Notes: generated by a model from the sequence alone, not told the origin. A stretch of 64,000 nt of DNA from Desulfovibrionales bacterium (GCA_028715605.1 JAQURM010000006.1:59589-123588), one strand, 5' to 3'. Counted from the stretch's first letter, positions 2,352-60,960 are shown. Numbers and translations are program-made.

Positions 2352-4610
2352 ATGGACAACGAACTCAAAACCTTGCAGGAGATATTAGATGATATCGCGC
2401 TTAAGGCTATAATGCTGACCCCGGGCAATCTAGTTGAGTTAGGGGAGCTCCTCTCCAAGATCGAAGAGGTTATGGCCTATGAGGATACAACCCTCCCGGC
2501 GGCTGTAAAGAAGATAGGCGGGGGACTCAAACTTATTATAGAAAAGATCATATTGGGCGAGCTACCCGACACGGACGTAGTCTATGAAAAAATAAGCCAG
2601 GCCATCTCTATCTTACAGGATATTTGCAGAGAAAAAGACCAGGAGCAGGCCGGCGCTTCTCTTAAAAACTTTAATGGACTGCTTAAAGAATTAAATCTTG
2701 CGGATACGGAAGTGCAAACAGCGGGACAAGATGACACAACAATGGAAGAGGAGGCAACCCCTGAGGTTTCTGTGACCAAAAGCAAACCGGTTATAGACAT
2801 TACTCAAGATAAAGAATTGCTTGCCGGATTTATCAGCGAGAGCATGGAACATCTTGAACAAATTGAGGTGGACATCCTCTCTCTTGAACAGTCTCCCGAT
2901 GATAAGGACTGCATAAACACTATTTTTAGACCATTCCATACTATAAAAGGTGTCTCAGGCTTTTTGAATCTACAGGATATTAATAAGTTAGCACATGAAA
3001 CGGAAAATATCCTGGATAAAGCCCGAAACGGCGAGCTTTCGATCTCCTCAGAAATTATTGACCTTATCCTGGACGCCTGTGATGTCCTGAAAAGGATGAT
3101 AATGGACATAAAAACGGCCCTGGAGACAGGTACATTGGAGCAAAAGGATTACGACCTGGACAGTTTTATCAACCGGATAAGGGCCGCGCAGGAAGGGGTG
3201 GTAGGAGAAGAGGCCACCCTGCCGGAGCCTAAATTAGTAGGGGAGATACTGGTCAAAAAGGGTGTGGCCGATACAGAGGCCATAGATAAGGCCCTGGAAA
3301 AACAGCGAGATTCCGGTGAAAAAATCGGGGAGATTATCATCAGAGAGGCCGCTGTTAAACCCAAAGAGGTCGCCCATGCCCTGCGTGAACAAAAAGCTAT
3401 GACCTCCATTGCTTCTGCCGGGACTGCCAATAGTGCCGTCAAGGTGGACATCGGCAAGCTCGATAACCTGGTAGATATGGTCGGTGAGCTGGTCATCACC
3501 CAGTCCCTTATCTGGCAGAATTCCCACGTCCAGACCATACGGGATCAGAAACTTATGCGTGATTTCTCCCAGCTAAGCCGTATTACTACCGATCTACAGA
3601 AGACAGCCATGTCTTTGCGAATGGTGCCCATAAAACAGACCCTTCAGAAGATGATCCGGTTGGTACGGGATCTGGCCAAAAAATCTGAAAAACAAGCTGA
3701 TCTTCAGATGAGCGGTGAGGATACAGAGATCGACCGCAATATGGTTGACGCCATTTACGATCCCCTGGTGCATATGATACGTAACTCTATAGACCATGGC
3801 ATTGAGATGCCGGATGAAAGAGCAACTAAAGGCAAGCCGGCCACCGGCACTATCTGGTTAAGGGCTTATCAAAAAGGCGGTAACATTGTGATTGAGATCG
3901 AGGATGACGGACAGGGCCTGAACCGCGAGAAGATATTAAAAAAGGCCAAGGAAAAGGGATTGATTAAAAACACCGAGGGTCTCTCCACATTTGAAATTGA
4001 TAATCTTATATTCCAGGCCGGATTTTCTACAGCCGATAAGATAACCGATGTCTCCGGCCGGGGCGTAGGGATGGATGTAGTAAAGAAAGCCATAGAGAAG
4101 TTGCGCGGCAAGGTGGAGATAAGTTCGCGCCCCGGGCAAGGTTCCACATTCACCATTAAGGTTCCGCTTACCCTGGCTATTATCGACGGCATAATAGTAA
4201 AGGTAGGGGTGGAACGTTATATAGTGCCAACAGTGGTCATTAAAGAGACTATAAGGCCGCGGCAGGAAGAATATAGCACTGTCCATGGCAAGGGCGAGAT
4301 GATTAAGGTCAGGGGAAATCTTATCCCGTTAGTAAGATTATATAAGATGTTTGATATTGATGCCGAACATAAAGACCCTTGCGAGTCTCTGGTGGTTGTG
4401 GTTGAAAACGAAGGACGGCAAAAATGCCTGCTGGTTGATGACCTCCTTGGCAAACAAGAAGTGGTCATCAAGAGTCTCGGAGACCACATGAAAAATGTCA
4501 GAGGACTGGCTGGAGGGACTATTTTAGGAGACGGGAAAGTAGGGCTGATTTTAGATATAAACGGCATATTTAGTGTGGCTGAAGAACAAAATTTGGGGAT
4601 GCTGCATTAA
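2352..4610 (+). CDS. cheA: Chemotaxis histidine kinase CheA
   Basis: Hpt H-box HTIKGVSGFL. HATPase G-boxes are present. There is a C-terminal CheW-like domain. Confidence 0.9.
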   Translation: MDNELKTLQEILDDIALKAIMLTPGNLVELGELLSKIEEVMAYEDTTLPAAVKKIGGGLKLIIEKIILGELPDTDVVYEKISQAISILQDICREKDQEQAGASLKNFNGLLKELNLADTEVQTAGQDDTTMEEEATPEVSVTKSKPVIDITQDKELLAGFISESMEHLEQIEVDILSLEQSPDDKDCINTIFRPFHTIKGVSGFLNLQDINKLAHETENILDKARNGELSISSEIIDLILDACDVLKRMIMDIKTALETGTLEQKDYDLDSFINRIRAAQEGVVGEEATLPEPKLVGEILVKKGVADTEAIDKALEKQRDSGEKIGEIIIREAAVKPKEVAHALREQKAMTSIASAGTANSAVKVDIGKLDNLVDMVGELVITQSLIWQNSHVQTIRDQKLMRDFSQLSRITTDLQKTAMSLRMVPIKQTLQKMIRLVRDLAKKSEKQADLQMSGEDTEIDRNMVDAIYDPLVHMIRNSIDHGIEMPDERATKGKPATGTIWLRAYQKGGNIVIEIEDDGQGLNREKILKKAKEKGLIKNTEGLSTFEIDNLIFQAGFSTADKITDVSGRGVGMDVVKKAIEKLRGKVEISSRPGQGSTFTIKVPLTLAIIDGIIVKVGVERYIVPTVVIKETIRPRQEEYSTVHGKGEMIKVRGNLIPLVRLYKMFDIDAEHKDPCESLVVVVENEGRQKCLLVDDLLGKQEVVIKSLGDHMKNVRGLAGGTILGDGKVGLILDINGIFSVAEEQNLGMLH

Positions 4611-4616
4611 TTATAG

Positions 4617-4707
4617 TGAATGTCATTAGTCAATAGTCATTTGTCACTGGTAAAAGAGATCAATCTTCCACCTTCAACCAATGACCGATGACTAATGACC
4701 AGTGACC
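4617..4707. repeat. Palindromic GTCA-heptamer repeat (family B), gtcattagtcaatagtcatttgtcactggt ... accaatgaccgatgactaatgaccagtgac
   Basis: A near-identical copy lies at 19593-19681. Partial copies lie at 12650-12690 and 31081-31106. Confidence 0.75.
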
Positions 4708-4753
4708 TTGCCTATAAGCTGAAGGCTTATATATGAAAAAGGGGAGTTAACTT

Positions 4754-5134
4754 ATGCCAGCAGATAAGAATATGAGAATATTGGTGGTTGATGACTTTAA
4801 CACCATGCGCCGTATAGTAAAAAACATTCTGAAACAACTGGGATTCGAAAATGTAGGCGAGGCCGAAAACGGTCAAGAGGCGCTTGAGGTCTTGAAAAAG
4901 GAAAAATTTGACTTCGTAATAACCGACTGGAACATGCCGGTTATGACCGGTCTTGATCTGCTTAAGGCAATCAAGGCGGATGCCGCATTAAAGGACATCC
5001 CCGTAATGATGGTCACTGCCGAGGCACAGCAACAGAATATCGTGGAGGCGGTTAAGACTGGGGCCAGTAACTATATTGTCAAGCCATTTACGGCCGAAGT
5101 TCTGGAAGAAAAGATAAGCAAGATATTCAAGTAA
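4754..5134 (+). CDS. cheY: Chemotaxis response regulator CheY
   Basis: Single REC domain of 126 aa with a conserved Asp (ITDWNMP). Confidence 0.85.
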
Positions 5135-5138
5135 TCTG

Positions 5139-5963
5139 ATGTTCGACGACCTTACCGATAACGAATTCGAACTCTTCAGTAAGCTCGTCTATACTAAGTC
5201 CGGCATTAACCTCCACACAGGCAAGAAGGAATTACTGCGCGCTAGGCTGGCCAAAAGGCTGAGAAGCTCTAATTTTCAGAGTTTTCAGGAATATTATGAT
5301 TACGTGTTGCAGGATAAGAGTGGGGAGGAACTGGTTCGGCTGCTGGATAGCGTGTCCACCAACCTGACCAGTTTTTTTCGTGAATCCAAGCACTTTCAAT
5401 TCCTGGCAGATGAGGCGCTGCCAAGCCTGCTTGCAGATAAAAAAAGGGGCGGAAGGATAAAAATCTGGAGCGCCGGTTGTTCATCGGGCGAGGAGCCTTA
5501 TTCTCTTGCAATAACTATTTTAGAACATACGGCAATTACCCCGGCGTTGAACCTAAAAATATTGGCAACCGATATATCTACAAGGGTCTTAACTACAGCC
5601 GAGCAGGGGATATACCCGGAAGAACGATGCAAAGATATTGATATTAATATCCTGAAAAAATACTTCCAAAAAGGACAGGGCCGGTGGCAGGGATACGTCC
5701 AGGTTAAGCCTGTGGTCAGGAACTGCATCCAGTTTATGAGATATAACCTCATGGAACCATGTCCATGTAAGGAACCTATGGACATAATTTTTTGCCGTAA
5801 TGTGATGATCTATTTCGATAAGAACACACAGGAAAAAGTAGTAAACGGTTTTTATTCGGCGCTAGGTGAAGGAGGCTACCTTTTTATCGGGCACTCAGAA
5901 AGCCTGACGGGTATAAAGCATGCCTTTAAATATGCGCGTCCGACTGTCTATCAGAAAAAATAG
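5139..5963 (+). CDS. cheR: Chemotaxis protein methyltransferase CheR
   Basis: CheR N-terminal helix followed by a SAM-dependent MTase domain. Confidence 0.85.
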   Translation: MFDDLTDNEFELFSKLVYTKSGINLHTGKKELLRARLAKRLRSSNFQSFQEYYDYVLQDKSGEELVRLLDSVSTNLTSFFRESKHFQFLADEALPSLLADKKRGGRIKIWSAGCSSGEEPYSLAITILEHTAITPALNLKILATDISTRVLTTAEQGIYPEERCKDIDINILKKYFQKGQGRWQGYVQVKPVVRNCIQFMRYNLMEPCPCKEPMDIIFCRNVMIYFDKNTQEKVVNGFYSALGEGGYLFIGHSESLTGIKHAFKYARPTVYQKK

Positions 5964-5977
5964 AAAAAGGATCGGTT

Positions 5978-6463
5978 GTGGCCAGCAAACTCGTCGTCGG
6001 TATTGCAGATATGTGCGTAAGCAAGGACCCATCGGCTATTTTAATTACTTACTCCCTGGGGTCCTGCATCGGCGTGTCCATTTATGATCCTGTAGTCAAG
6101 GTGGGGGGATTGCTTCATCTAATGCTTCCGGAATCAAAGATAGCCCCTGATAAGGCAGAAAAAAATCCGTGCATGTTTGCAGATACAGGCGTGCCCTTGC
6201 TTTTCAAAGAGGCATATAAATACGGCGCTGATAAGAAACGCATGATAATTAAAATAGCCGGGGGGGGGCAGGTTATGGATGCCAGCGGCTTTTTCAATAT
6301 CGGCAAACGTAACTACATGGCCCTTCGCAAGATCTTTTGGAAAAATGACGTTCTTATAAGCAAAGAAGACATAGGTGGTAATGTCAACCGCACTATGCGC
6401 CTTGAGATAGGCACGGGGCGCGTCTATCTCAAGGTATCGGACAGCGGAGAGATAGAACTATGA
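5978..6463 (+). CDS. cheD: Chemoreceptor glutamine deamidase CheD
   Basis: CheD family: SLGSCIG with the catalytic Cys. Confidence 0.8.
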   Translation: MASKLVVGIADMCVSKDPSAILITYSLGSCIGVSIYDPVVKVGGLLHLMLPESKIAPDKAEKNPCMFADTGVPLLFKEAYKYGADKKRMIIKIAGGGQVMDASGFFNIGKRNYMALRKIFWKNDVLISKEDIGGNVNRTMRLEIGTGRVYLKVSDSGEIEL

Positions 6464-7293
6464 AAGATATCAGGACCATTACTAAAGATATCAAGGAATT
6501 GCCGCCACTTCCGGAAGTAGCTCAAAAGGTATTTTCCTTACTACATGACCCTAAAAGCAATGTTCAGGATCTGGTCAAGGTTGTACAGCTTGATCAGGCT
6601 ATGACGGCTAATATATTGAAATTATGCAATTCTGCATACTTCGGCCTGAAGAGAAAGATCAGTTCTTTGCAGGAGGCCCTGGTCTTGCTCGGCCATAAAA
6701 AATTACACGAGATTATTATGACAGACAACAGCAGTAAATATTATAAAAAAGTCGGCCTGGGTTATAACCTGGAAAAAGGCGAGCTCTGGAAACATTCTGT
6801 GGCCTGCGCCCTTCTTTCTCAGATATTGGTGCGAAAAACAGGCTTACCCGAAGATCCTTTCTTATTTAACGCCGCCCTCCTTCACGATATCGGCAAGGTG
6901 ATACTCAGCACTTACGTCAAGACAGAATATGATCAAATAATCAGGTTGGTTAAAGAACAGCAATATCCCTTTTTGCAGGCAGAAAAAGAGGTTATCGGGA
7001 TTGATCACGCCGAATTAGGGGGACGAATCGCTGAGGAATGGAATTTCCCCGGCGCCCTGGTAGAAGCGATTGCCCAACATCATACGCCTGATGCGGAGAA
7101 TTACATCTCCTGCATCGTTCATCTCTGTAATCTGATGACTATCATGATGGGTATCGGCACGGGTTATGGCCTCGCTGACTATGGGAAAGATGCTGTCATG
7201 AAAAAATTAGGTCTGAAAGAAAGACATCTCGAATCATGTATGGTTGAACTATGGCATGAACTCCAGAAGGCGGAAGACCTGCTCAAATGTTAA
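6460..7293 (+). CDS. HDOD domain signalling protein
   Basis: HD-related output domain pattern (HDIGK, AELGG). The gene sits inside the che operon. Confidence 0.6.
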   Translation: MKDIRTITKDIKELPPLPEVAQKVFSLLHDPKSNVQDLVKVVQLDQAMTANILKLCNSAYFGLKRKISSLQEALVLLGHKKLHEIIMTDNSSKYYKKVGLGYNLEKGELWKHSVACALLSQILVRKTGLPEDPFLFNAALLHDIGKVILSTYVKTEYDQIIRLVKEQQYPFLQAEKEVIGIDHAELGGRIAEEWNFPGALVEAIAQHHTPDAENYISCIVHLCNLMTIMMGIGTGYGLADYGKDAVMKKLGLKERHLESCMVELWHELQKAEDLLKC

Positions 7294-7337
7294 CTCAATA
7301 AATGCCTGCCTGACGGCGGGCAGGGAGGCGGCTTCTT

Positions 7338-7717
7338 ATGGCCTTTAATATCTTAATAGTCGATGACTCTATGGCCATGCGCAGCGTTATACGCAAGGTC
7401 ATCTCGATTTCCGGCTTCGATGTCGGGACCTTTTTTGAGGCCGGCAATGGAAAAGAAGCGCTCGAAGTCCTTAATGGGCAGTGGATAGACCTGGTTCTAA
7501 GTGATATTAATATGCCGGAGATGGATGGCCTCACCTTTGTAAAAAAGATGAGAGGGCATGAGATCTATAAAAACATCCCGGTAGTTATGATAACCACCGA
7601 AGGCTCCCAGGCCTGTATAGATGAAGCCATGTCTTTGGGGGTTAAGGGGTATATCCAGAAGCCGTTTATGCCTGAGGTAATCAAGGAAAAACTCGAAGAG
7701 ATTATGGAGAAGACCCG

Positions 7718-7721
<4 letters not shown>
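7338..7721 (+). CDS. CheY-like single-domain response regulator
   Basis: REC domain with DDS...LVLSDINMPEMDG. Confidence 0.8.
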
Positions 7722-9258
<1,537 letters not shown>

Positions 9259-9399
9259 GATGACCTTGCAAGAAGTATTTCATTCTATAAAAGTTGACAT
9301 AATATATCTTATCCGACATTACGCAGGGTATGCAAAACTCTTCTTATTTCTATATTGCTCCGGCAGTTAAGTACATGAAAAATGTCATGCCGGATCCCC

Positions 9400-9525
9400 G
9401 GTCAAGTTGAGGACAGGCTTTATCCGGCATCCAGTTCCTTGCTGGATTCCCGCCCTGCCTCCAGCGGACCATGGGCAGGGTCGGACCTGGACGGTTTTCG
9501 CGGGAATGACGGCATCGAGTATTTT
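9400..9525. repeat. Palindromic repeat family D (gtcattcc[c/t]gcgaaa.c...ggaatccag)
   Basis: Related copy at 33378-33450. This is a GC-rich island inside an AT-rich intergenic region. Confidence 0.6.
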
Positions 9526-9769
9526 GTTGCCGGAGTAATAAGACCTCCAACTGACAGATAATCACATATTATTATTATCCATAAAATCAATATAATATCA
9601 AATATATATAATGTTATACATTATAATTCATGTTAAAGTATTTGATATTACGTTAATTAATTAATTCTATTTAAACCATGGAAAATTTTTTCCGTTTTAT
9701 AAGAAAATTTTTTCCACTTTTTTTAAAAAAAATTCCTTTTAGTCGATAAAATAAGATATAGTATAAGAC

Positions 9770-10861
9770 ATGGAGACGGCATCCAGTATGGATATTATGG
9801 ATATGATAGTTGGTGAAAGTGAGCCAATTACAAGAATAAAAGAACTTATTAAGCAAATAGTCGATACCGATCTGACGGTTGTAATTTACGGAGAAAGCGG
9901 TGTCGGCAAGGAATTAGTTGCCCGGTCTTTGCATTTCCAGTCTCACCGCAAGGATTTCCCATTTGTTAAGGTCAATTGTGCCGCCCTTCCCTCCGAGCTC
10001 CTGGAAAGTGAATTGTTTGGCTATGAAAAGGGCGCCTTTACCGGGGCTGACGGACTGAAACCTGGTAAATTTGAACAGGCAAATGACGGCACCATATTCT
10101 TAGACGAAATTGGAGATATGCCGTTAACATTGCAATCAAAATTATTGCAGGTACTTCAGGATGGCGAATTTTCGAGAATTGGCGGCAAAAAGGATGTCAA
10201 GGTGAATACCTGGATAGTCTCAGCAACCAACCACGACTTGGAAAACGAGGTTAAGCGAGGTCTTTTTAGAGAAGACCTTTTTTATCGTTTAAATATCATA
10301 AAAATCCTGGTGCCTCCTCTCCGCGACAGAAAGGAAGATATACCCATTTTATTTGAGCATTTCCTCTCACGCTATGGTGAGCAGTTTAATCCTGATTTCG
10401 TTCTGGATAAAGAAGTACTAGATATCTTTTCCAGTTACCACTGGCCTGGAAATGTGCGAGAAATGGAAAACTACATAAAAAGACTCCTGGTCCTGAATGA
10501 TTGGGAACAATTAAAGGAAGAAATCCTCGATAAAATCCACGCGGCGCCCACAAGAAGAGATATGTCCATAGCCACGCCGGATGTAAAAGCAAAAGAAAAA
10601 ATATCCCGGGATGTTCTGGAGAAGTTAATAGATCTGGGTGAAGAAAAAGAGAGGATTATTTCCCTTCCTTCCCTTAAAGAAATTAAAAAACAGGCCCTCC
10701 TGAAGATCGAAAAAGAGGTGATAGAGGAGGTTTTGAAGAGAACGAACTGGAATAAGAAGCTGGCCGCACGACATCTTAAGATCAGTTATAAGGCCCTGCT
10801 CTATAAAATAAAGGAGGCGGACATAAAAAAACCACCCGATTTAGACAAGGAAAGAAAATGA
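9770..10861 (+). CDS. Sigma-54-dependent transcriptional activator with no N-terminal sensory/receiver domain (PspF-like architecture)
   Basis: It starts directly with an AAA+ sigma-54 interaction domain (GESGVGKE; GAFTGA present). There is a C-terminal Fis-type HTH. Confidence 0.8.
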   Translation: METASSMDIMDMIVGESEPITRIKELIKQIVDTDLTVVIYGESGVGKELVARSLHFQSHRKDFPFVKVNCAALPSELLESELFGYEKGAFTGADGLKPGKFEQANDGTIFLDEIGDMPLTLQSKLLQVLQDGEFSRIGGKKDVKVNTWIVSATNHDLENEVKRGLFREDLFYRLNIIKILVPPLRDRKEDIPILFEHFLSRYGEQFNPDFVLDKEVLDIFSSYHWPGNVREMENYIKRLLVLNDWEQLKEEILDKIHAAPTRRDMSIATPDVKAKEKISRDVLEKLIDLGEEKERIISLPSLKEIKKQALLKIEKEVIEEVLKRTNWNKKLAARHLKISYKALLYKIKEADIKKPPDLDKERK

Positions 10862-11045
10862 GGTAGTATTCACTATAAGACTTGCAGATGAGAAAAATAT
10901 TTCCACTACCAGGAGAAAAAATTTCCACAATAAGTTACCACTATTTCCATTTACGTCTTAAACGTTTCTGTCCGGTATTTACACATATAATTAAATCATT
11001 CATAATATCCAACAGTTATTAATTGTCTATGGCCTATAAAAGTTC

Positions 11046-11060
11046 TGGCACCTTTTTTGC
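11046..11060 (+). promoter_or_regulatory. Sigma-54 promoter TGGCAC-N5-TTGC
   Basis: Exact -24/-12 consensus, about 85 nt upstream of the 11145 start codon. Confidence 0.6.
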
Positions 11061-11144
11061 TCAATATTGGAAGCGTTCAAAATAGTTATGTCACCGGCAC
11101 TCTTATGTTAAGTTTAGTCCGGACTTAAAGAAAGTGGTGTTAAT

Positions 11145-12635
11145 ATGCACTTAGATGGTGAAAGAAGAAGACATTTTCGTATCCCGTTACGGCTTCCCGT
11201 CCGTCACCGTGTTGCCGGCAGAGATTTTGAAGACAGTATTGCCTTAGATATTCATCAAAACGGGGCGTTTATTTTATCGGAAGAACTACCGGACGTTGGA
11301 ACCGCCATAAATCTGAATTTTACCATTCCGGAAACGGACCAGTTAGTCAGAGTCAAAGGCGACGTACGCTGGGTCATTGATCGTCAACCCAATCATGAAT
11401 CCGGTATGGGCGTTAAATTTGAAAAACCTGTCTCCTTTGTAATGCCCATAGAATTGGTCTCACAATATATGGATAATAACCTGGCGGCATTTGTTGATTA
11501 TGCCCGGCATCCATTTTACCCTGAGATTCAACAACTCAAAAATCTGAATAACCACGTCATTAACTCGGTAAATAATGGGGTTATTATATTAGACGAGGAA
11601 TTTGTAATCAGAAATTACAATCCAAAGCAATGTGCTGCATTCATACCGGAAAAGCAAAAAGTAATCGGCCGACCCATCTGGGAGGTGAATAAGCTATTTA
11701 ATTTACGGTATCAGGAAAAGACATTTAAAGACATATTGCAGGAAGTCTTGGGTGGTAAGAGCTATAGAATTAAAAATGTTGCTTATGAACCACCTCTAAA
11801 AGAATCAAATAATCACTATCTAGACTTAGAACTAAGGCCTGTTATTGAGACTAGTGGAGCTGTTTCAGGTATAATAATCGTAATCCAGGACGTTTCAAAG
11901 GAAAGGCAATGGTCCTTACGGGAAAAAGAGCTTGAATCAGTCCTTATTGAACAATCCAGACATTCTTCCGTCGGGTTAATAATAAAAGGGTTATTGAATA
12001 ATATGGTTAATCCCCTTTCTTCCATACAAGGCCGACTTGAACTGTTAAATCTCGAGATGCAGGCCGGTAAAAATAACTTGGCAGATTCTTCTCATAGCGC
12101 CCAGGGGATAGATAAACTTGATAAGTATATAGAAGGTCTGAGGATGATCGGTCATAATGTACAAATCCTCTCTGATCTATGTCGTAATTTCATGGCCAGG
12201 ATAAAGAAAGAGCAGGACACGATGCCCCGGCTTCTTAATCTGAACGATATTATTATGAACGAGATTATGTTCCTGGAAGCAAACCAGAAATTCAGGTATG
12301 AAATTAACAAAAAGTTGGCCCTGGCAAAAGACCTTCCCTTTATATGGGGGGCTTATATCGATTTTTCACAACTTATTTTCAATCTCTTAGACTATTGCAT
12401 CAAGGCCATGAACCTTTCTGATAAAAAGGAGCTTTTTATTTCCACCGGATTTGAAAATAATATGATTTGTCTGGATATAAAACATTCGGGTACGGCCTCA
12501 AAACAAGCACCACAAAACGATTTTCTGCTATGTCTTCTTAATCTTTTAAGAAAAAAATACAATTTTGACCTATCCGTCCAGGAACAATATAGCAACACCA
12601 TATTTTCTCTACGTATCCCGGTTTCTGAAGATTAA
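11145..12635 (+). CDS. PilZ domain - PAS - degenerate histidine-kinase-like protein
   Basis: N-terminal PilZ motifs RRHFR and DIHQNG. A PAS region follows. The DHp-like segment has the phospho-His position replaced (LLNNMVNPL). The HATPase domain is truncated. Confidence 0.6.
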   Translation: MHLDGERRRHFRIPLRLPVRHRVAGRDFEDSIALDIHQNGAFILSEELPDVGTAINLNFTIPETDQLVRVKGDVRWVIDRQPNHESGMGVKFEKPVSFVMPIELVSQYMDNNLAAFVDYARHPFYPEIQQLKNLNNHVINSVNNGVIILDEEFVIRNYNPKQCAAFIPEKQKVIGRPIWEVNKLFNLRYQEKTFKDILQEVLGGKSYRIKNVAYEPPLKESNNHYLDLELRPVIETSGAVSGIIIVIQDVSKERQWSLREKELESVLIEQSRHSSVGLIIKGLLNNMVNPLSSIQGRLELLNLEMQAGKNNLADSSHSAQGIDKLDKYIEGLRMIGHNVQILSDLCRNFMARIKKEQDTMPRLLNLNDIIMNEIMFLEANQKFRYEINKKLALAKDLPFIWGAYIDFSQLIFNLLDYCIKAMNLSDKKELFISTGFENNMICLDIKHSGTASKQAPQNDFLLCLLNLLRKKYNFDLSVQEQYSNTIFSLRIPVSED

Positions 12636-12752
12636 AAGGCAGTCCCAGGAGTCATTAGTCCCAAGTCGATAGTCAGCAGTCAGAAGAAGAGTGATGGGGC
12701 ATGGCTCATAGCTCAGGTTCATAGCTGAAAGCTGATCGCTGAGACATGACCT

Positions 12753-13841
12753 ATGATCGAAATCGATGGCTCCTATGGAGAGGGAGGCGGGCAGATATTA
12801 CGGACCGCTCTAAGTCTATCCTGTCTCCTCCAGAAGCCCTTCCGCATCTATAACATCCGCGCTAACAGAAAAAATCCCGGTCTGCGCCCGCAGCATCTGG
12901 CCGGTGTAAGGGCAGCAAGGGAGATCAGCCAGGCAGCAGTTGACGGCGCTACCATCGGTTCAACTACCCTTGCCTTTCGGCCTGTTACACTAAAAGGCGG
13001 CAAGTATCTCTTTGATGTGTCCGAAGAAAGAGGAAGCGCCGGATCTGTCTCTCTGGTTTTTCAAACCATATCACTTCCATTAGCTTTTGCAGGCGAGCCT
13101 TCCGATGTGACCATAAAAGGCGGCACTCATGTGCCTTGGAGTCCACCCTTTCACTACCTGGCCGGGGTATTTATCCCCACCATAGAGGGAATGGGCATGG
13201 TGGTGGATTCCCATCTTGAACGATGGGGTTGGTATCCTATGGGCGAAGGTATTGTCCATTTCTCCATAAAGCCGGTTACCCGGCTGAAGGGTATATCTAA
13301 AACCGACAATCTGCAACCGGAAGAGGTGACCGCAATATCAGCAGCTTCTAATCTTCCGGAACACATCGTAACCCGGCAGAAGAGACAATTGTTAAAGAGA
13401 ATTTTCAAAGATACGCCACAGCGTGCCACTGAGGGGACAACAGTATCCTGTGAAGAGATTGCGGCGCCTTCAATTGGTCAGGGAACTTTTGTGTTCTTAA
13501 GGGTTCGGGGAGGCGATTCCTTTGCCGGTTTTTCGGCCTTAGGGGCCAGAGGGAAACGGGCGGAAGAAGTAGCCGATGAGACTGCCGATTTATTCCTCTC
13601 CTTTCTGGATAGTCAGGCGGCCGTAGATAGACACCTGGCCGATCAGCTCATTCCCTATATGGCCATGGCAGATGGGAAAAGCAAAATATTTACCGCAGAA
13701 ATAACCCTGCACCTCATGACCAATATCCGTGTTGTTGAACAGTTTACTCAAGCCAAGTTTCACGTAGAAGGTACGCTTGGCACTACCGGCATCGTAACAT
13801 GCGTTCCAGAATCCCCAAAAACCCCTATTATAACACGTTAG
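12753..13841 (+). CDS. rtcA: RNA 3'-terminal phosphate cyclase RtcA
   Basis: Strong end-to-end resemblance to RtcA (DGSYGEGGGQILRTALSLS). Confidence 0.85.
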   Translation: MIEIDGSYGEGGGQILRTALSLSCLLQKPFRIYNIRANRKNPGLRPQHLAGVRAAREISQAAVDGATIGSTTLAFRPVTLKGGKYLFDVSEERGSAGSVSLVFQTISLPLAFAGEPSDVTIKGGTHVPWSPPFHYLAGVFIPTIEGMGMVVDSHLERWGWYPMGEGIVHFSIKPVTRLKGISKTDNLQPEEVTAISAASNLPEHIVTRQKRQLLKRIFKDTPQRATEGTTVSCEEIAAPSIGQGTFVFLRVRGGDSFAGFSALGARGKRAEEVADETADLFLSFLDSQAAVDRHLADQLIPYMAMADGKSKIFTAEITLHLMTNIRVVEQFTQAKFHVEGTLGTTGIVTCVPESPKTPIITR

Positions 13842-13850
13842 GTGCTTGAA

Positions 13851-13975
13851 ACCTTCCTACCTACACTCAGAAAAGGCTATTAATCTGGAACTCAGAAAAT
13901 CAGGAAAAGATAGACCCTCTTTATTTGGGTTTGCACTTCCCTGAGTTCCTGATTTCCAAATTTGATTGAGCTTTG
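13851..13975. repeat. Repeat family E (acactcagaaaaggctattaatctggaactca...)
   Basis: Related copy at 60765-60960. Confidence 0.6.
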
Positions 13976-13981
13976 ACCTTC

Positions 13982-16252
13982 TTATTTTGTACTTAGAAGG
14001 GCCTTTTCCGCCTCTCTAGCCTCCAGGAAGGCGCGACTTATACTTAGTGCCCGATTTAGTTCTGCTTTGGCCCGGGCCTTATTTCCTTTCTTCAGATAGG
14101 CCATGCCTAAGTGATAATGGATGGTAGGATGATTAGGAATCTTCTTAATGGCATCTTCAAACTCTCTTATAGCCCTATCAACAACGTTTTTCTTATAGTA
14201 GATCCATCCCAGAGTATCAGCGATGCCCGGGTCTTCAGGGTTCTGCTCTTTGGCCATTTGGGCCAGGGTAAGGGCTTCATCTATGTTTCCGCCATGTTCC
14301 GCCAGGTTACAGGCCAGGTTATTTGCCGCCGGTGCAAATTTCGGATTGATTTTTAAGATTTCCCGATATTCTTTCTGGGCAGCGTCATATTTACCCCGGG
14401 ATTCATATAAGACCCCCAGACTCATGCGGGCGGTTATAGCCTTTGGATTCCTTTTTATAGCCTCCTGAAACTCTGCCATGGCCTTATCTGTGCGTTTTGT
14501 GGCTGCATAAAGCCTCCCCAGGGCCATATACGGAGAGACAAAGTCAGGACTGATACTAATCGCCTTCTTGTAGTTTACTTCCGCAAGATCAACCTTCTGA
14601 TCCGCCAGGTGGAGATTGCCGAGCAGGTTATAGATAAAAGGATTGTTGGGGGAACGTTTAAGTTGTTCTTCCGACCGGGTTATGGCCTTTTTTAGATCTC
14701 TCCCCGCCACGTGAATAGAAACCACCTGGTTCAAGGCATCAATAAGATGGGGATTTAACTTTAAGGCGTCTTCAAACTCATTTAACGCCGGATTATTCTG
14801 GCCCATCACACGGTAAGCTATACCCAGACGATAATAACCTGCCGGTGACCTGGGAGCTATTTTCTTGGCCTCCTGATATTCCGTTTGCGCCTCCTTGACC
14901 TTCTTTTGCCCCATATAACTGTCTCCTAGGAGGAGCCTGGCCTGGAGATTTCCCGGCTGAATCTTGATCGCTTCCTGCAATTCCCTTTGCGCAGCATCAA
15001 CGGCCCGTTCTCCCAGATATATCTCGGCCAGTAGCAATCTTGCCTTTGTAAGGCCCGGCGACTGCTTAACGACCTCGACTAGGCTGTTTTTGGCCAGTTG
15101 CGTTTCACCTTTTCCTATATGGGCTAAGGCCTTATAATAGCGGACGTCCTGAAGACGCGGCTCCTCTTTAAGAATCCCATCAAATTCGGTCAAGGCATTG
15201 GTAAAATCTCTCTTCTTGAGATAAATCCGGCCCTTAAGTATCCGGGCCGGGATGTTCTTTTCGTTTTCGTCAAGGATGTCTTCTAGTTTTTTTTCGGCCT
15301 CTTTTATCTTTCCGAAATCATAATAGAGCGTGGCTATGGCATTTTTGATATTCAGATTGTCCGGTTTTGCCTCTGAAGCCTTCTTGAAACCGGCAAGGGC
15401 CGGTTCAAATTTATTCTGTAAGGCATAATATTGTCCCAGGACCATAAAAGGTTTCGGGTCCTTGGGATCGATCTGGGCGGCCTTTTTAAAGGTACCCTCA
15501 GCCTCTGCCGGCCTGCGTGTTGCCATATAGAAATTGCCTAGTATAATGTAATAGTCTGCCTTCTTGGGATTTAAGGAGATAATTTTTTTCAATTCGGCTT
15601 CTGCCTGGTCAATCCGTCCGGTATGGGCATAAAAATCAGCCAGTGTGAGCCGGGGGCCAGGCGCTTTTTCATCTGCCGCCATTGCCTTTTTAAGGTATTC
15701 CTCCGCGAGATCTAATTTCTTCTGCCTTGCATAAATCCTGGCCAGTAATATGTAGGCCGGGGACTGTTTAGGATCGAGAGCAATAATTTTATTCAGGGTG
15801 GCAATAGTTTCGTCAGGTTTACCTTCTGCCAATAGAATGTTGCCTGACAGATAGAGGGCGTCAATATTGTCAGGCTCCTTTTTTAGGACTAAGGCGGCCT
15901 TTTCCTTTGCCTCCGGCAGTTTTCGGCCTAACATGTATAAATTCCCAAGTTTAATCTGGGCATCGTAAAGCTCAGGATTAAGTTCCACCGTTCGGTTTAG
16001 TTCTCCAAACGCACCCCTTAGATTCCCCTTTTTGAGTTGAGCAAGGCCTAATTGATAGTGCCCATCCACATATTTGGGATCGATCTGGAGGGCGTTCTTA
16101 AATTCAATAATAGCCTCATCCAGCTTATTTTCCTTAACCAACTCCATGCCCTTTTTATAATGTTTGGCCTTTTTTTCCTCGGGAGTGCTGCAAGCGACAC
16201 AAATCAGCATCATTACTGCAACCAGGGAAAACCAAAACTTCTTTGTTCTCAT
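13982..16252 (-). CDS. TPR-repeat protein with an N-terminal signal peptide (756 aa)
   Basis: Hydrophobic N-terminus and more than 15 tandem TPR units. Confidence 0.8.
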   Translation of the reverse strand: MRTKKFWFSLVAVMMLICVACSTPEEKKAKHYKKGMELVKENKLDEAIIEFKNALQIDPKYVDGHYQLGLAQLKKGNLRGAFGELNRTVELNPELYDAQIKLGNLYMLGRKLPEAKEKAALVLKKEPDNIDALYLSGNILLAEGKPDETIATLNKIIALDPKQSPAYILLARIYARQKKLDLAEEYLKKAMAADEKAPGPRLTLADFYAHTGRIDQAEAELKKIISLNPKKADYYIILGNFYMATRRPAEAEGTFKKAAQIDPKDPKPFMVLGQYYALQNKFEPALAGFKKASEAKPDNLNIKNAIATLYYDFGKIKEAEKKLEDILDENEKNIPARILKGRIYLKKRDFTNALTEFDGILKEEPRLQDVRYYKALAHIGKGETQLAKNSLVEVVKQSPGLTKARLLLAEIYLGERAVDAAQRELQEAIKIQPGNLQARLLLGDSYMGQKKVKEAQTEYQEAKKIAPRSPAGYYRLGIAYRVMGQNNPALNEFEDALKLNPHLIDALNQVVSIHVAGRDLKKAITRSEEQLKRSPNNPFIYNLLGNLHLADQKVDLAEVNYKKAISISPDFVSPYMALGRLYAATKRTDKAMAEFQEAIKRNPKAITARMSLGVLYESRGKYDAAQKEYREILKINPKFAPAANNLACNLAEHGGNIDEALTLAQMAKEQNPEDPGIADTLGWIYYKKNVVDRAIREFEDAIKKIPNHPTIHYHLGMAYLKKGNKARAKAELNRALSISRAFLEAREAEKALLSTK

Positions 16253-35483: not shown

Positions 35484-35622
35484 CCACGCGAAAGCGCAAA
35501 GACCGCAAAAAGAATAAAATTTGGAACTCAGGAACTCATGAAAAAATCTTTTATTCCTGATTTTTTGATTTCCAGATTCTCTTTTTTTTTCTTAGCGCGT
35601 TTTGCGTCCTTGTGGTGAGACG
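35484..35622. repeat. MITE-like repeat family A, inverted copy
   Basis: Reverse complement of the 1290-1400 core. Confidence 0.75.
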
Positions 35623-46653: not shown

Positions 46654-49341
46654 TTAAAAGGCCCCTCCAATTGTAAAATCCCAGCTACTCGATTTTTCAC
46701 CCGGCTCAGGGTCTATGTTATAACCCCACTCCAGGCGCAGCGGCCCAATGGGTGAAAACCAGCGAAAACCGAAACCAACGCTGGTTCGGAGGTCGGTCAG
46801 GTTGTAACTGTCCTCTTCCCGAAAGGCGTTACCGGCATCAAAAAAGACCACACCCTTTAGCCCGGCCTTCTTTATCAGGGGGAATATATACTCAACGTTG
46901 AAGAGCAGCATCTTTTCACCGCCGATACGCTCACCGGTAGCCGGGTCGATAGGGCTGACATCCCCGAACTTAAACCCGCGCACTGAATTTAGACCGCCCA
47001 GATAAAACTTTTCATATACAGGCAGCTTACCGTCCGGATTCTCCTTCACATAACCTATAGCCCCGTTAATGTGCCCCACTGTATCCCAGAAAAGCGGATA
47101 GTACCAGCCTGATTTGGCCGTGTACTTAGTATAGGCACTGTCACCCCCCAGGAATCCGCCCGCATACTCGACGGAAAAGCTGTTTATCGACCCGGCAGTG
47201 GGATCGACGTAACTGTTGCGTGTATCCCTCTCTATAGCGGCATTTAAGGCGCTGGTTACATGGATGTCCATGGACTCAACTATCACCCATGAGGCTGTGG
47301 AACTAACGTCCGACATGGTGGCATCTTCGAATCTATAACCGCCAAATACCCTCAGATTGTCGGTTAAGGGATAGCCCAGCCTTAATCCTCCGCCGGTACT
47401 CTTCTTGGTATAATCATCGTACTCCGTTTCCCAGTTGAAAAGGTCGACGCCGGTGGCCAGTTTGGTATCAAGAAAATAAGGTTCTGTAAAACTAAGGTTA
47501 TAACGGGTGGAACGGCTGCTGGTTTGGGCCCGCAGGCTCAACTCCTGGCCGCGGCCAAAAAGGTTTCGCTGTGATATCTCGGCCATACCAATAAAGTGCT
47601 CCACAGAGCTGTAACCGCCGCCTATACTGAAGGCCCCGGTAGGCTTTTCTTTAATCTCGACCTTGAGGTCCATTTTAGTTTCGTCAGCGCCTTTGACCGG
47701 GGCTATATTCACATCCTCGAAGAAGCCAAGCCTCTGCAACCTCTGATTGCTCTTACGCAGGCCTTCGGCGTTAAATTGATCTCCTTCCGCTATCCTGAGT
47801 TCACGTCTTATAACCTTATCCCGCGTCTTGGTATTTCCGGATATCTCTATACGATCGAAATGGACTTTTCCCCCGGGCTGAATAAAAAAAGTTATATTTA
47901 CCTTTTTCCCCGTATCATCCTTGGCGATCTCGGGTGCGACCTCGGCATAGGCATAACCGGCGTCCGCATAGACATCTGTTAAGACCAGGATATCCTTCCT
48001 TAAGACATCACGACTGTAGGTCTTTTCCTGGCGAATCTTCAATATCGACAGCAACTCCTCTTTTGGCTTTATGAGCTTACCTTCAATATCCACCGACCCC
48101 ACTGTAAATTGAGAACCTTCCTCTATAGGGATAGTGATAAATATGAATTTCTCCTTGTGTTCGATCTCAGGCTCTCCGATCTTGACCTCGATATACCCGT
48201 TGTTATAGTAAAATGAAGTTATCTTGGATAAATCACGCTCCAAAACATCCCGGTTTAAAATGCCGGAGGATGTGAGCCAGGATAAAAACCCCTTTTCCGT
48301 AGTTTCCAGCATATCTTTTAATTGCTTGCTGCCAAAGACCTTGTTTCCAACGAACCGGATCTCCTTTATATGCACCTTTTCGCCTTCTTTAATGGAAAAG
48401 GTCAGTATAGCCTCATTATTAGGCAGGTCTGATAACTTGTGATCCAGAAGTGTCCCGTAATAACCTTTCTCCCGATAGAGAGATCTGATCTTTTCCTCAG
48501 ACTCCTGGATATCCTTGAGCTTTAAAATTGAGTTTGTCCGGACGCTGATTACTTCTTTTATTTTCTCCGTTTCGACACCGATATTCCCTTCTACCTTGAT
48601 GTCTTTTATAACCGGCTTCTCTGTAACCAGAAAGGTCACAATTTTCCCTTCAGGAGAGTCTTTAACATCGATATTTATCTCTGTAAAATAACCCATCGCA
48701 AAAATGGAGCGCATATCTTCGCTCAACCTGTCCTTGTTAAAAATATCGCCCGGTTTGGACTTGATATGGGTACGGATGGCCTCAGATTCAATCCTTCGAT
48801 TACCGGAAAACAAGACCTCTCCTATACGTTCTTTTTTTAAGACGGCGAACTGGATGTTGCCCACTATCTTATGCAGCGCCTTATCCAATTGTTCGGCCCC
48901 GGTGGTTTCGGCATAAAGCGGCACGGGAGCTTTAGGGTCGGCGACTTCAAGTAGCCAGACATCCAGGCTCAGGCGCTGGCCGATTTTAGTAATGCTGCCC
49001 CATACGATGCAATCCGCCCCCAGCTTCACTGCCGCATCCCGCATGTATCTGGCATCAAAAAGCCTGTTTCTGTCGATCTCTCCGGCTACCCGGGCCGGAT
49101 CGATTACTCCAAAGCCCGCCGATGTCAGAGCAGACATCAGGTTCTTTTCCATCGAAGCGACCAGGGAACTGATGTCTTCTTTACTGTGCACGATAAAAGG
49201 CGCAGCCGCTATAGCCTTTTTTTCTGCGGCTATGGCCGGTTGAAAAATAGAGCTCATCATGAAAAACAGGATCAATGACCTTAAAAATATCTTCATATCA
49301 AGAAAATCTCCCGGGATCAGATTGTTCCAGGCGTCCGTCAA
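46654..49341 (-). CDS. bamA: Outer membrane protein assembly factor BamA
   Basis: Signal peptide, five POTRA repeats and a C-terminal Omp85 beta-barrel ending in F. Confidence 0.9.
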   Translation of the reverse strand: MTDAWNNLIPGDFLDMKIFLRSLILFFMMSSIFQPAIAAEKKAIAAAPFIVHSKEDISSLVASMEKNLMSALTSAGFGVIDPARVAGEIDRNRLFDARYMRDAAVKLGADCIVWGSITKIGQRLSLDVWLLEVADPKAPVPLYAETTGAEQLDKALHKIVGNIQFAVLKKERIGEVLFSGNRRIESEAIRTHIKSKPGDIFNKDRLSEDMRSIFAMGYFTEINIDVKDSPEGKIVTFLVTEKPVIKDIKVEGNIGVETEKIKEVISVRTNSILKLKDIQESEEKIRSLYREKGYYGTLLDHKLSDLPNNEAILTFSIKEGEKVHIKEIRFVGNKVFGSKQLKDMLETTEKGFLSWLTSSGILNRDVLERDLSKITSFYYNNGYIEVKIGEPEIEHKEKFIFITIPIEEGSQFTVGSVDIEGKLIKPKEELLSILKIRQEKTYSRDVLRKDILVLTDVYADAGYAYAEVAPEIAKDDTGKKVNITFFIQPGGKVHFDRIEISGNTKTRDKVIRRELRIAEGDQFNAEGLRKSNQRLQRLGFFEDVNIAPVKGADETKMDLKVEIKEKPTGAFSIGGGYSSVEHFIGMAEISQRNLFGRGQELSLRAQTSSRSTRYNLSFTEPYFLDTKLATGVDLFNWETEYDDYTKKSTGGGLRLGYPLTDNLRVFGGYRFEDATMSDVSSTASWVIVESMDIHVTSALNAAIERDTRNSYVDPTAGSINSFSVEYAGGFLGGDSAYTKYTAKSGWYYPLFWDTVGHINGAIGYVKENPDGKLPVYEKFYLGGLNSVRGFKFGDVSPIDPATGERIGGEKMLLFNVEYIFPLIKKAGLKGVVFFDAGNAFREEDSYNLTDLRTSVGFGFRWFSPIGPLRLEWGYNIDPEPGEKSSSWDFTIGGAF

Positions 49342-56719: not shown

Positions 56720-57195
56720 CTCCCTTGCCGTTTTTAAAAAAGCCCGAACAATGTTATGCTGATACCATGTACAGGCCTCTAACAGAGGTTAGCCCCATCT
56801 TTACTTCTTTCCGTTTACGCTCACCTTGCCGTCACGTCAGGAAACCATATGATAACCAGATACGAATTGTCAATTTGTTTGAGTAACCACTGGGAGCGCC
56901 GGTGAAATATCGACATTTGTTTACCAACACCCTGATTGCTTTTTCACCTATTTAAAATCAAATATATCATTTTCAATCTGTTTCGCAAGAGAGACTGTCC
57001 TGCTCTTTGATGATGAGGATATGGTTCTTGGTGTTGGCGAAAAGATTCTCCGGTGGTTGTGATGGTTTTATCCAGAAGCCCTTTGATATCAAAGCATCGT
57101 CTCATAAGATAAGGGAGATTTTGGAAAAGCAATAGGCTATAGTGCTCCACCCGAAATAACAACTTGCTATATATTGTGACAGCGTTAGAGTCGCA

Positions 57196-57232
57196 AAAAT
57201 TAAAAAGGGCTACAGATTGTTCTCTGTAGCCC
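57196..57232 (-). terminator. Rho-independent terminator downstream of tRNA-Gln. The hairpin is flanked by T/A runs on both strands.
   Basis: gggctacagattgttctctgtagccc with aaaaa on one side and tctgatttt on the other. Confidence 0.6.
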
Positions 57233-57244
57233 TCTGATTTTATT

Positions 57245-57318
57245 TGGCTGGGGGACGAGGATTCGAACCTCGGTAGACAGATCCAGAGTCTGCCGTCCTG
57301 CCGCTGGACGATCCCCCA
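57245..57318 (-). tRNA. tRNA-Gln (anticodon CUG)
   Basis: Hand-folded cloverleaf UGGGGGAUCGUCCAGCGGCAGGACGG...CUCUGGA...GGUUCGAAUCC...CCCCAGCCA. Close to E. coli tRNA-Gln. CCA is encoded. Confidence 0.85.
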
Positions 57319-57416
57319 ACAATCTCAAATAACCATGCCTGATGCCCCGAATAATTAAGAAAAAACCGGATAAAAGTCAAGGACAAATTGGGCTCCGACC
57401 TTTAACAGCCCTGACC

Positions 57417-60649: not shown

Positions 60650-60960
60650 TTATGGCAGTCGATCATATTTCAGAATACGGAATTCAGGAGCCAGAAGTCA
60701 GAAAACATTCGAACGACTCGAACAATTAGAACGCCTGTAAGACGTTAGGTGTTTGAAACAGTCCTACATTCAGAAAAGGCTATTAATCTGGAACTCACAA
60801 CCCCATGAAAAGAAGATACAAAAATCTCACTTCAATTTGGAACTCATGAACTCATGAAAAACAGAGCAACCAGAGGCCGAACTGTTGAAAATCAATTTCT
60901 CAAAAATACTTTCCTGATTTCCTGAGTTCCTGATTAAAACGCCTTCCTGAATTCCTGATT
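60650..60960. repeat. Composite repeat region (families C and E) in the ORF-free tract downstream of tRNA-Pro
   Basis: Shares segments with 44945-45055 and 13851-13975. Confidence 0.55.

Follow-up and report, generated by a model that had tools for sequence, protein, structure and literature searches.

What controls a sigma-54 activator that carries no sensor or receiver domain of its own? The question is raised by a locus in a stretch of 64,000 nucleotides from a Desulfovibrionales bacterium (GCA_028715605.1, JAQURM010000006.1:59589-123588), which we call the window. There, a gene for such an enhancer-binding protein (EBP) is followed by a sigma-54 promoter, by a gene for a PilZ-PAS protein with a degenerate histidine kinase core, hereafter the pseudo-kinase, and by rtcA, the gene for RNA 3'-terminal phosphate cyclase. 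A first-pass annotation of the sequence placed all of these in one unit and suggested a module linked to cyclic di-GMP (c-di-GMP), dependent on sigma-54 and coupled to RNA end repair. The analysis below retains the module and removes rtcA from it. What is conserved is the pair of EBP and pseudo-kinase genes with the promoter between them, and the pair itself suggests how the EBP might be controlled.

Conservation of the gene pair

The relatives of the pseudo-kinase fall into two clades. A word-indexed homologue search reached six close clusters only, and the distant clade was found by exhaustive profile search. The close homologues (60-98% identity) are restricted to a handful of metagenome-assembled genomes and metagenome contigs, and the named ones are labelled Thermodesulfobacteriota. 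In every locus of this close clade (about nine), the EBP gene lies immediately 5' of the pseudo-kinase gene. In the exhaustive search, the score drops from 957 bits to 143 bits, and below that gap lies the second clade, consisting of full-length proteins with PilZ, PAS, DHp-like and CA-like parts that are 21-25% identical to the pseudo-kinase of the window. Here too, an EBP of ~357 aa without a sensor domain is encoded directly 5' of the pseudo-kinase, and it is 55-60% identical to the EBP of the window. The pair is present at about nine such distant loci (L010/11/20, L012, L015/16, L017, L018, L019, L021, L023 and L024/25). The flanks of the distant loci are entirely different: on the 5' side, beside the EBP gene, is a divergent gene for a response regulator-GGDEF (RR-GGDEF) cyclase, and on the 3' side is a convergent gene for a stand-alone receiver (REC) protein, followed by genes for GalT, DksA, MoaC and DnaJ. 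Judged by gene order, the conserved unit is the EBP gene followed by the pseudo-kinase gene, because these are the only genes common to the loci of two clades with unrelated flanks.

Both proteins are under purifying selection (dN/dS, the ratio of nonsynonymous to synonymous substitution rates, 0.06-0.15). Since this holds for the pseudo-kinase, it is by this measure a working protein and no relic. The pair is low in GC (0.39-0.42 for the EBP and pseudo-kinase genes, versus 0.465 for the window). Horizontal acquisition was considered on that account and set aside as a weak signal, other low-GC genes being present in the window. Literature searches did not turn up any account of an EBP paired with a PilZ pseudo-kinase, and no source gave an informative name for either protein. 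The cassette would be a novel example of EBPs regulated in trans; it is not an Rtc-type RNA-repair system.

The REC protein beside the distant-clade pseudo-kinase has 121 aa (L010 7430-7795 and L012 7583-7957, both on the minus strand; also L018, L019, L021, L023 and L024). It has the phospho-acceptor Asp and is closer to NtrC-type receivers than to CheY. It is 77-95% identical between loci whose pseudo-kinases share only ~30% identity, and it might serve the sensor-less EBP as a "split" receiver.

Table 1. Features of the EBP, pseudo-kinase and rtcA region, in window coordinates.
Feature	Position	Strand	Description
AT-rich control region of the EBP gene	9540-9769	+	GC ~0.21-0.26 (200-nt windows across 9500-9799)
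Two putative autoregulatory EBP sites 5' of the EBP gene	9680-9693; 9702-9715		GGAAAATTTTTTCC; AGAAAATTTTTTCC; 22 bp apart; GGAAA-N4-TTTCC type
Sensor-less sigma-54 EBP	9770-10861	+	363 aa; AAA+ with GAFTGA, lid, Fis-type HTH
Two putative upstream activator sites	10891-10904; 10914-10926		AGAAAAATATTTCC; AGAAAAAATTTCC; 134-155 bp upstream of the promoter
IHF-like site	11006-11018	+	TATCCAACAGTTA; one mismatch to WATCAANNNNTTR; between upstream sites and promoter; putative function
Predicted sigma-54 promoter	11046-11060	+	TGGCACCTTTTTTGC; -24 TGGCAC, -12 TTGC; exact TGGCAC-N5-TTGC
PilZ-PAS pseudo-histidine-kinase	11145-12635	+	496 aa
 PilZ	11160-11429		aa 6-95; Pfam PF07238, E 1.9e-13
 PAS	11538-11894		aa 132-250; Pfam match at 137-254
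 DHp-like hairpin	11895-12212		aa 251-356; Asn285 (nt 11997-11999) at the His position
 CA-like domain without ATP lid	12222-12620		aa 360-492
Spacer, pseudo-kinase gene to rtcA	12636-12752	+	117 nt
rtcA (RNA 3'-terminal phosphate cyclase)	12753-13841	+	TIGR03399, 390 bits versus cutoff 250
Inverted-repeat region between convergent rtcA and TPR gene	13842-13981		structured, z -2.4; partly interspersed repeats

The promoter and its upstream sites

The promoter TGGCACCTTTTTTGC is the sole exact match to TGGCAC-N5-TTGC in the 64 kb, where 0.07 would be expected by chance. It lies 185 nt past the EBP stop and 85 nt ahead of the pseudo-kinase ATG and points at the pseudo-kinase gene. In an alignment of the spacer between the EBP and pseudo-kinase genes, TGGCAC-N5-TTGCTC is invariant across seven close loci, including L005, in which the spacer has otherwise largely diverged. 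Across both clades, a GG-N10-GC promoter is recognisable in 11 of the 12 regions scanned upstream of the pseudo-kinase gene; at L015, it is concealed within an over-extended gene call. By consensus, placement and orientation, it is predicted to be a sigma-54-dependent promoter.

Two blocks further upstream, GAGAAAAATATTTCCAC and GAGAAAAAATTTCCAC, are kept in the same seven close loci, again including the diverged L005. Both are versions of the palindrome GGAAA-N4-TTTCC, with a spacing of about two helical turns. Most of the distant-clade loci scanned also have this palindrome, often in pairs or triplets, upstream of the GG-N10-GC promoter, and in nearly all loci of either clade the sites fall 80-165 bp upstream of the promoter. 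A second set lies 5' of the EBP gene itself and is present in the window, L004, L002, L006, L007 and L008, with similar single sites in L019 and L021; L001 has none there. Only six palindromes with at most one mismatch occur in the 64 kb, and three of these are within the two control regions. The two clades have almost the same EBP recognition helix, ISYKAL(L)YK, with a single Leu-to-Ser change in L012, and it is unlike that of the NtrC-type EBP encoded in the same 64 kb, as expected if the EBP reads the GGAAA-N4-TTTCC palindrome. We infer from these patterns that the EBP binds these sites. The IHF-like site falls in a block of invariant columns in the close-loci spacer alignment, and L005 has a perfect TATCAAGCACTTA.

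Between the promoter and the start codon there are lineage-specific insertions, of ~45 nt in L002 (about 6170-6215) and L003 and of ~130 nt of short tandem-like repeats in L001 (about 1540-1670). The leader of the pseudo-kinase gene thus tolerates large insertions.

The PilZ-PAS pseudo-histidine-kinase

The kinase core of this protein is not detected as such by the usual profiles. Neither HisKA nor HATPase_c of Pfam matches it at E<=1, and the sole GHKL-type match, HATPase_c_5 (E 0.037), is below its cutoff, while two ordinary kinases of the same 64 kb (58750-59832 and 54383-56719) score on both HisKA and HATPase_c and serve as an internal control. When the core is aligned by profile to that of FixL, the phospho-His of LAHELNQPL falls opposite Asn285 in LLNNMVNPL of the pseudo-kinase. 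All seven close homologues have N or T at this position; the distant clade has E or D, in the motif LLEDIVNPLSA. The nearest genuine kinases found in the exhaustive search have (I/L)AHNLNxPL and intact G1 and G2 boxes. Where a G1 box would stand, the pseudo-kinase of the window has HSGTA and the distant clade HNGKAL. Relative to P0022, a deletion of about 20 residues takes out the F box, the ATP lid and the G2 box, and no PilZ-bearing member of the family has a regex match to a G1 or G2 box. The first-pass annotation had described a PilZ-PAS fusion to a kinase-like core with no phosphorylatable His and a truncated ATPase; with no intact H box after the FixL alignment, that description stands. 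His273 (QSRHSS) was considered as a hidden phospho-acceptor and rejected: it is Tyr in P0004 and so is not conserved.

The fold appears to be retained. An AlphaFold (AF2) model with pLDDT 76 has a PilZ barrel, a PAS domain, helices 251-312 and 318-356 forming a DHp hairpin and an alpha/beta domain at 362-492. Foldseek matches this model in the PDB to PAS kinases (E 1e-18 to 1e-10), and also to NifL in the NifL-NifA complex (9qq6_A, E 3.8e-15) and to the pseudo-kinase DivL (4q20). Among NCBIfam models, the best match is AtoS at 58 bits, and the NifL model TIGR02938 gives 34.4 bits, its cutoff being 242. The pseudo-kinase is predicted, from sequence and modelled fold, to keep the dimeric form of a kinase and to be incapable of autophosphorylation or of normal ATP binding. 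Its most conserved stretch is the DHp helix after the lost His (59%, versus 23% overall).

The PilZ domain scores 51.1 bits against a cutoff of 22.5. Its RxxxR motif, R8-x3-R12, is invariant in the close clade, and every full-length member of either clade keeps RxxxR. At the second PilZ motif, the sequence is D35-I-H-Q-N-G40, in which D/N and G are conserved, and the position of the Ser is His here and S, T, N or H across the family. A sequence search of the PDB with the PilZ domain alone gave only weak matches (E >= 0.16), to a non-canonical PilZ protein of type IV pili, and these carry no information on ligand binding.

The EBP and its control region

The EBP consists of Sigma54_activat (residues 13-179; PF00158, 232.9 bits), AAA_lid_14 (185-256; PF25601) and HTH_8 (312-349; PF02954), and the Pfam scan found no domain N-terminal of Sigma54_activat. 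There is no hidden N-terminal sensor or receiver because the open reading frame (ORF) opens right behind an in-frame stop, which makes an upstream extension impossible. An alternative start at 9788 would give a 357-aa form, as called in the relatives. The GAFTGA loop and the Walker A and B motifs are intact (GESGVGKE, FLDEIG). The absence of a regulatory domain, for which the first-pass annotation compared the EBP with PspF, is thus borne out both by Pfam and by the limit of the ORF, and the architecture is all that is shared with PspF: the models TIGR02974 (282.9 bits, cutoff 443.55) and NF008622 (231.6 bits, cutoff 529) both score below cutoff, and no pspA-like gene is among the annotated neighbours. 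The NifA model TIGR01817 gives 346.8 bits against a cutoff of 529, the GAF domain being absent from the Pfam scan. The RtcR model NF038308 gives 293 bits against a cutoff of 650, over model positions 180-503, which are the AAA+/HTH part only. That score is no better than those of the NifA, NtrC or AtoC models, and the CARF domain of RtcR is not present.

The region before the EBP gene is as AT-rich as had been noted (Table 1). It holds sigma-70-like hexamers, for example, TTAAAA-18-TAAAAT at 9723-9752, and is partly kept in L004, L002 and L006. The same three loci keep a set of nested AT-only palindromes at 9585-9658, with an outer pair, AATATCAAATA and TATTTGATATT, 34 bp apart and an inner ATAATGTTATACATTAT. 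A further regulator of the EBP gene might use these as its operator.

Directly 5' of the EBP gene is a che-like cluster (2352-9258) encoding CheA with a CheW domain, CheY, CheR, CheD, an HDOD protein, a REC protein, CheX and CheB; no gene for a methyl-accepting chemotaxis protein was seen within it. The cluster still adjoins in L002, L004, L007 and L008, including the lineage in which rtcA is not adjacent. The segment between cheB and the AT-rich region (9330-9530) is GC-rich (~0.5 GC) and variable among close relatives; the shared part is the first ~30-50 nt only, plus two further short blocks in L007. A 71-aa minus-strand ORF within it is probably spurious.

A proposed mechanism

The degeneracy of one protein complements that of the other: the activator is without a receiver or sensor, and the kinase has no His, no N, G1 or G2 box and no ATP lid. 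Given this complementarity and a pairing strictly kept over deep divergence, the simplest reading is that the EBP's missing sensor would be the pseudo-kinase, acting in trans. The model that we prefer, and to which we give slightly less than an even chance, is a self-contained two-gene sigma-54 cassette in which the EBP drives the pseudo-kinase gene and the pseudo-kinase feeds back on the EBP by direct binding. By analogy, this would be NifL-like hardware run by PspA-like logic and gated by PilZ and PAS inputs, the feedback step being the supposed one. The model is built from the domain content of the two proteins and their degeneracy, the conservation of promoter and sites, the pairing across two deep clades and the purifying selection; the contact of the pseudo-kinase with the EBP, the sign of its effect and the binding of c-di-GMP are its proposed parts.

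In outline, the EBP, having no cis-regulatory domain, would be active by default, with an ordinary promoter of the AT-rich region for its expression. It would bind the GGAAA-N4-TTTCC palindromes 134-155 bp upstream of the sigma-54 promoter and, helped by an IHF-type bend, allow sigma-54 RNA polymerase to transcribe the pseudo-kinase gene. The DHp and CA-like surfaces of the pseudo-kinase would then bind the AAA+ domain of the EBP and keep the active ring from assembling, in the way that NifL acts on NifA; c-di-GMP at the PilZ domain and a PAS signal would gate this binding. The RxxxR motif and, in the distant clade, the RR-GGDEF neighbour point to c-di-GMP as an input to the pseudo-kinase. Because the pseudo-kinase's own gene would be the target of the EBP, the result would be a feedback loop like that of PspF and PspA, and the similar sites ahead of the EBP gene suggest that the EBP regulates itself as well. 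In a fuller form of the idea, a former two-component pair has turned into a phosphorylation-free partner switch with GGAAA-N4-TTTCC as its own operator, in which the PilZ-PAS pseudo-kinase holds or releases the sensor-less EBP according to c-di-GMP; we consider this form possible and rather doubtful.

Several points weigh against the proposal. The second PilZ motif is (D/N)xHxxG rather than (D/N)xSxxG, which makes c-di-GMP binding uncertain. Unlike NifL, the pseudo-kinase has a CA-like domain with no nucleotide pocket. The conservation of its DHp helix could equally mean docking of a receiver protein or a general structural constraint of kinases. At one distant locus, L013, a transporter gene rather than an EBP gene lies ahead of the pseudo-kinase gene. 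Our view spans 64 kb of the genome, and the EBP may have other targets. Finally, the contact of the two proteins is a proposal, the sequences being too few for co-variation.

If the proposal is true, it would be the first instance in which a sigma-54 activator is controlled by c-di-GMP in trans via a PilZ domain, and it would add a route from c-di-GMP to sigma-54 transcription. A new cassette would be defined, with GGAAA-N4-TTTCC as an operator of its own, in at least two deep lineages of uncultured bacteria (the clade of the window is annotated Thermodesulfobacteriota), and the pair would exemplify a kinase and regulator whose evolution led from catalysis to stoichiometric binding. A sigma-54 activator without a sensor needs a partner in trans, and to our knowledge, only a handful of these are understood (PspA, NifL, HrpV and FleN). 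The cassette offers a new candidate partner whose architecture can be tested, with its operator and promoter both defined and two small proteins.

Alternative explanations

Since rtcA lies 117 nt after the pseudo-kinase gene, just downstream as first described, it is natural to ask whether the promoter serves an operon of the two genes, with c-di-GMP and sigma-54 coupled to RNA 3'-end repair in an analogue of RtcR-RtcBA that lacks CARF and RtcB. rtcBA of E. coli is generally known to be sigma-54-dependent, and the RtcA encoded here looks catalytically intact from its sequence. rtcA follows the pseudo-kinase gene in five of six close lineages (the window, L004, L007, L008 and L001), and no terminator-like hairpin (plus strand, z -1.2) or sigma-70-like promoter was found in the 117-nt spacer. 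A sigma-54 promoter of its own was rejected for rtcA: the best candidates in the spacer have at least three mismatches, and nothing is conserved there. However, in L002/L003, where the pseudo-kinase is 89% identical and the EBP, the promoter and the upstream che-like cluster are all intact, rpsT stands in place of rtcA and the synteny break falls exactly after the pseudo-kinase gene. rtcA is in none of the roughly nine distant-clade loci, which keep the pair. The spacer is poorly conserved among relatives, with many large indels, in GC, rtcA (0.51) resembles the flanks and not the pseudo-kinase gene (0.39), and the EBP is no closer to RtcR than to NifA, NtrC and AtoC. No gene for RtcB or a CARF-type RtcR is among the window genes examined, as had been noted, with a few mid-sized ORFs at ~22-25.3, 27.9-28.7, 42.2-46.6, 49.3-50.0 and 52.9-54.3 kb unscanned. 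Because the association is lost in a close relative and absent from the distant clade, rtcA is, by comparison of loci, a lineage-specific neighbour or passenger and no component of the conserved cassette. Its read-through from the sigma-54 promoter in this lineage is plausible, since the spacer holds neither terminator nor promoter; any co-transcription would be read-through and not a conserved functional coupling. Thus, of the first-pass annotation, the c-di-GMP-linked sigma-54 module survives and co-transcription stays possible, but neither the placing of rtcA in one unit with the pair nor a coupling to RNA repair is supported. The position of rtcA downstream of a sigma-54 promoter alone is no evidence of an Rtc-type RNA-repair regulon, and we regard such an operon as improbable.

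The other alternatives concern the pseudo-kinase itself. It might be a terminal output, namely a scaffold under c-di-GMP and PAS control that docks a receiver protein on its DHp helices in the manner of DivL, with control of the EBP left to the level at which it is expressed or to another factor. The structural matches include DivL, the most conserved stretch is the DHp helix, on which receivers dock, and, within the available sequence, the sole promoter carrying the sites is that of the pseudo-kinase. Candidate partners are at hand as well: at every distant locus, the gene for the 121-aa REC protein, 77-95% conserved, lies right beside that of the pseudo-kinase, and the che-like cluster with its REC genes still adjoins in the close clade even without rtcA. 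Yet in the window clade the distant REC gene is not adjacent and has no orthologue in the 64 kb, where its best match (36-40%) is the receiver of the NtrC-type EBP; in the distant loci it ends a long conserved syntenic block (GalT, DksA, MoaC and DnaJ), so that its adjacency may be inheritance rather than function. Such a scaffold would also leave a default-active EBP without any control, and on balance we think it unlikely. It might be asked, instead, whether the pair is a decaying two-component system, an NtrB/AtoS-type kinase and an NtrC-type regulator that are now non-functional relics. Both partners are without phosphotransfer parts, and the AtoS match of the pseudo-kinase is in keeping with such an origin. 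Against this, the ORFs are intact in about 18 loci of two deep clades, the degenerate motifs are fixed throughout the family (LLEDIVNPL and HNGKAL being those of the distant clade), and the dN/dS of 0.06-0.15 and the conservation of promoter and upstream sites largely refute it by sequence comparison; a relic is highly improbable.

Relationship to known systems

The two-gene cassette with feedback that we prefer has parallels in several known systems. The EBP, like PspF, is AAA+ and HTH only. The sigma-54 target gene of PspF encodes PspF's own negative regulator, and sites near its own promoter give autoregulation. PspA differs from the pseudo-kinase in being a coiled-coil, ESCRT-III-like membrane protein that is not kinase-like, and the psp genes are divergent while the genes here are in tandem. 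RtcR-RtcBA is similar in having a sigma-54 promoter and an EBP upstream of rtcA; here, there is no CARF domain, no rtcB was found among the window genes examined, a 496-aa signalling protein is encoded between promoter and rtcA, and the association is not conserved.

The likeness to NifL-NifA lies in a PAS-containing, non-phosphorylating kinase-like protein encoded beside a sigma-54 EBP, in the structural match to NifL (9qq6_A) and in the presence of NifA and NifL among the NCBIfam matches of the EBP and the pseudo-kinase, with scores far below the family cutoffs (347 versus 529 and 34 versus 242, respectively). NifL's DH and GHKL domains bind the AAA+ domain of NifA and hold its protomers apart (PMC12998190). 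NifL differs in its FAD-PAS, its lack of PilZ and its retained nucleotide-binding GHKL domain, where the pseudo-kinase has a CA-like domain without the ATP lid; NifA differs in having a GAF domain, the EBP having no N-terminal domain at all. The order in that system is nifL-nifA in one operon with nif targets, unlike here, where the kinase-like gene itself would be the sigma-54 target, and no nif genes are among the window genes examined.

DivL of Caulobacter is also a PAS-DHp-CA protein without the phospho-His and acts as a binding sensor rather than an enzyme, reading DivK~P (PMC4211667). It has Tyr at the His position, keeps its CA domain, is membrane-anchored and has neither PilZ nor a link to a sigma-54 EBP. 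In FleQ, VpsR and FlrA, c-di-GMP is linked to sigma-54-type activators by binding the AAA+ domain of the EBP itself, in contrast to the candidate receptor here, which is the PilZ domain of a second protein, the pseudo-kinase. In addition, FleN holds FleQ as a partner in trans (PMC3424551; PMC12998190, discussion).

Other features of the window

The spacer before rtcA contains five AGTC words phased every 7 nt (12650-12684: AGTCATT AGTCCCA AGTCGAT AGTCAGC AGTCAGA). They are kept in L004 and L008, and L007 and L001 have other sequence there. The inverted-repeat region after rtcA is likely the end of the transcription unit. Short repeats within it, at 13860-13907 and 13942-13963, recur at 60763-60797, 60910-60937 (minus strand), 1356-1377 and 35517-35538 (minus strand) and resemble intergenic elements of the REP/MITE type. 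An Rfam search of 9000-14200 gave nothing meaningful, its one match being Ocean-VII at 15.6 bits versus a gathering score of 53.5.

An ordinary sigma-54 two-component set lies at 54383-59832 on the minus strand and comprises a PAS-HisKA-HATPase_c kinase (58750-59832), an NtrC-type REC-AAA-HTH activator (57417-58928) and a hybrid kinase that has several PAS domains and a REC (54383-56719). That the organism uses sigma-54 is clear. The segment 21907-43278 is an envelope/lipopolysaccharide region with low-GC (0.36-0.42) glycosyltransferase and O-antigen-ligase genes and with genes for heptosyltransferases, LpxK, Kdo transferase, an MsbA-like ABC exporter and LpxB, and BamA is encoded at 46654-49341.

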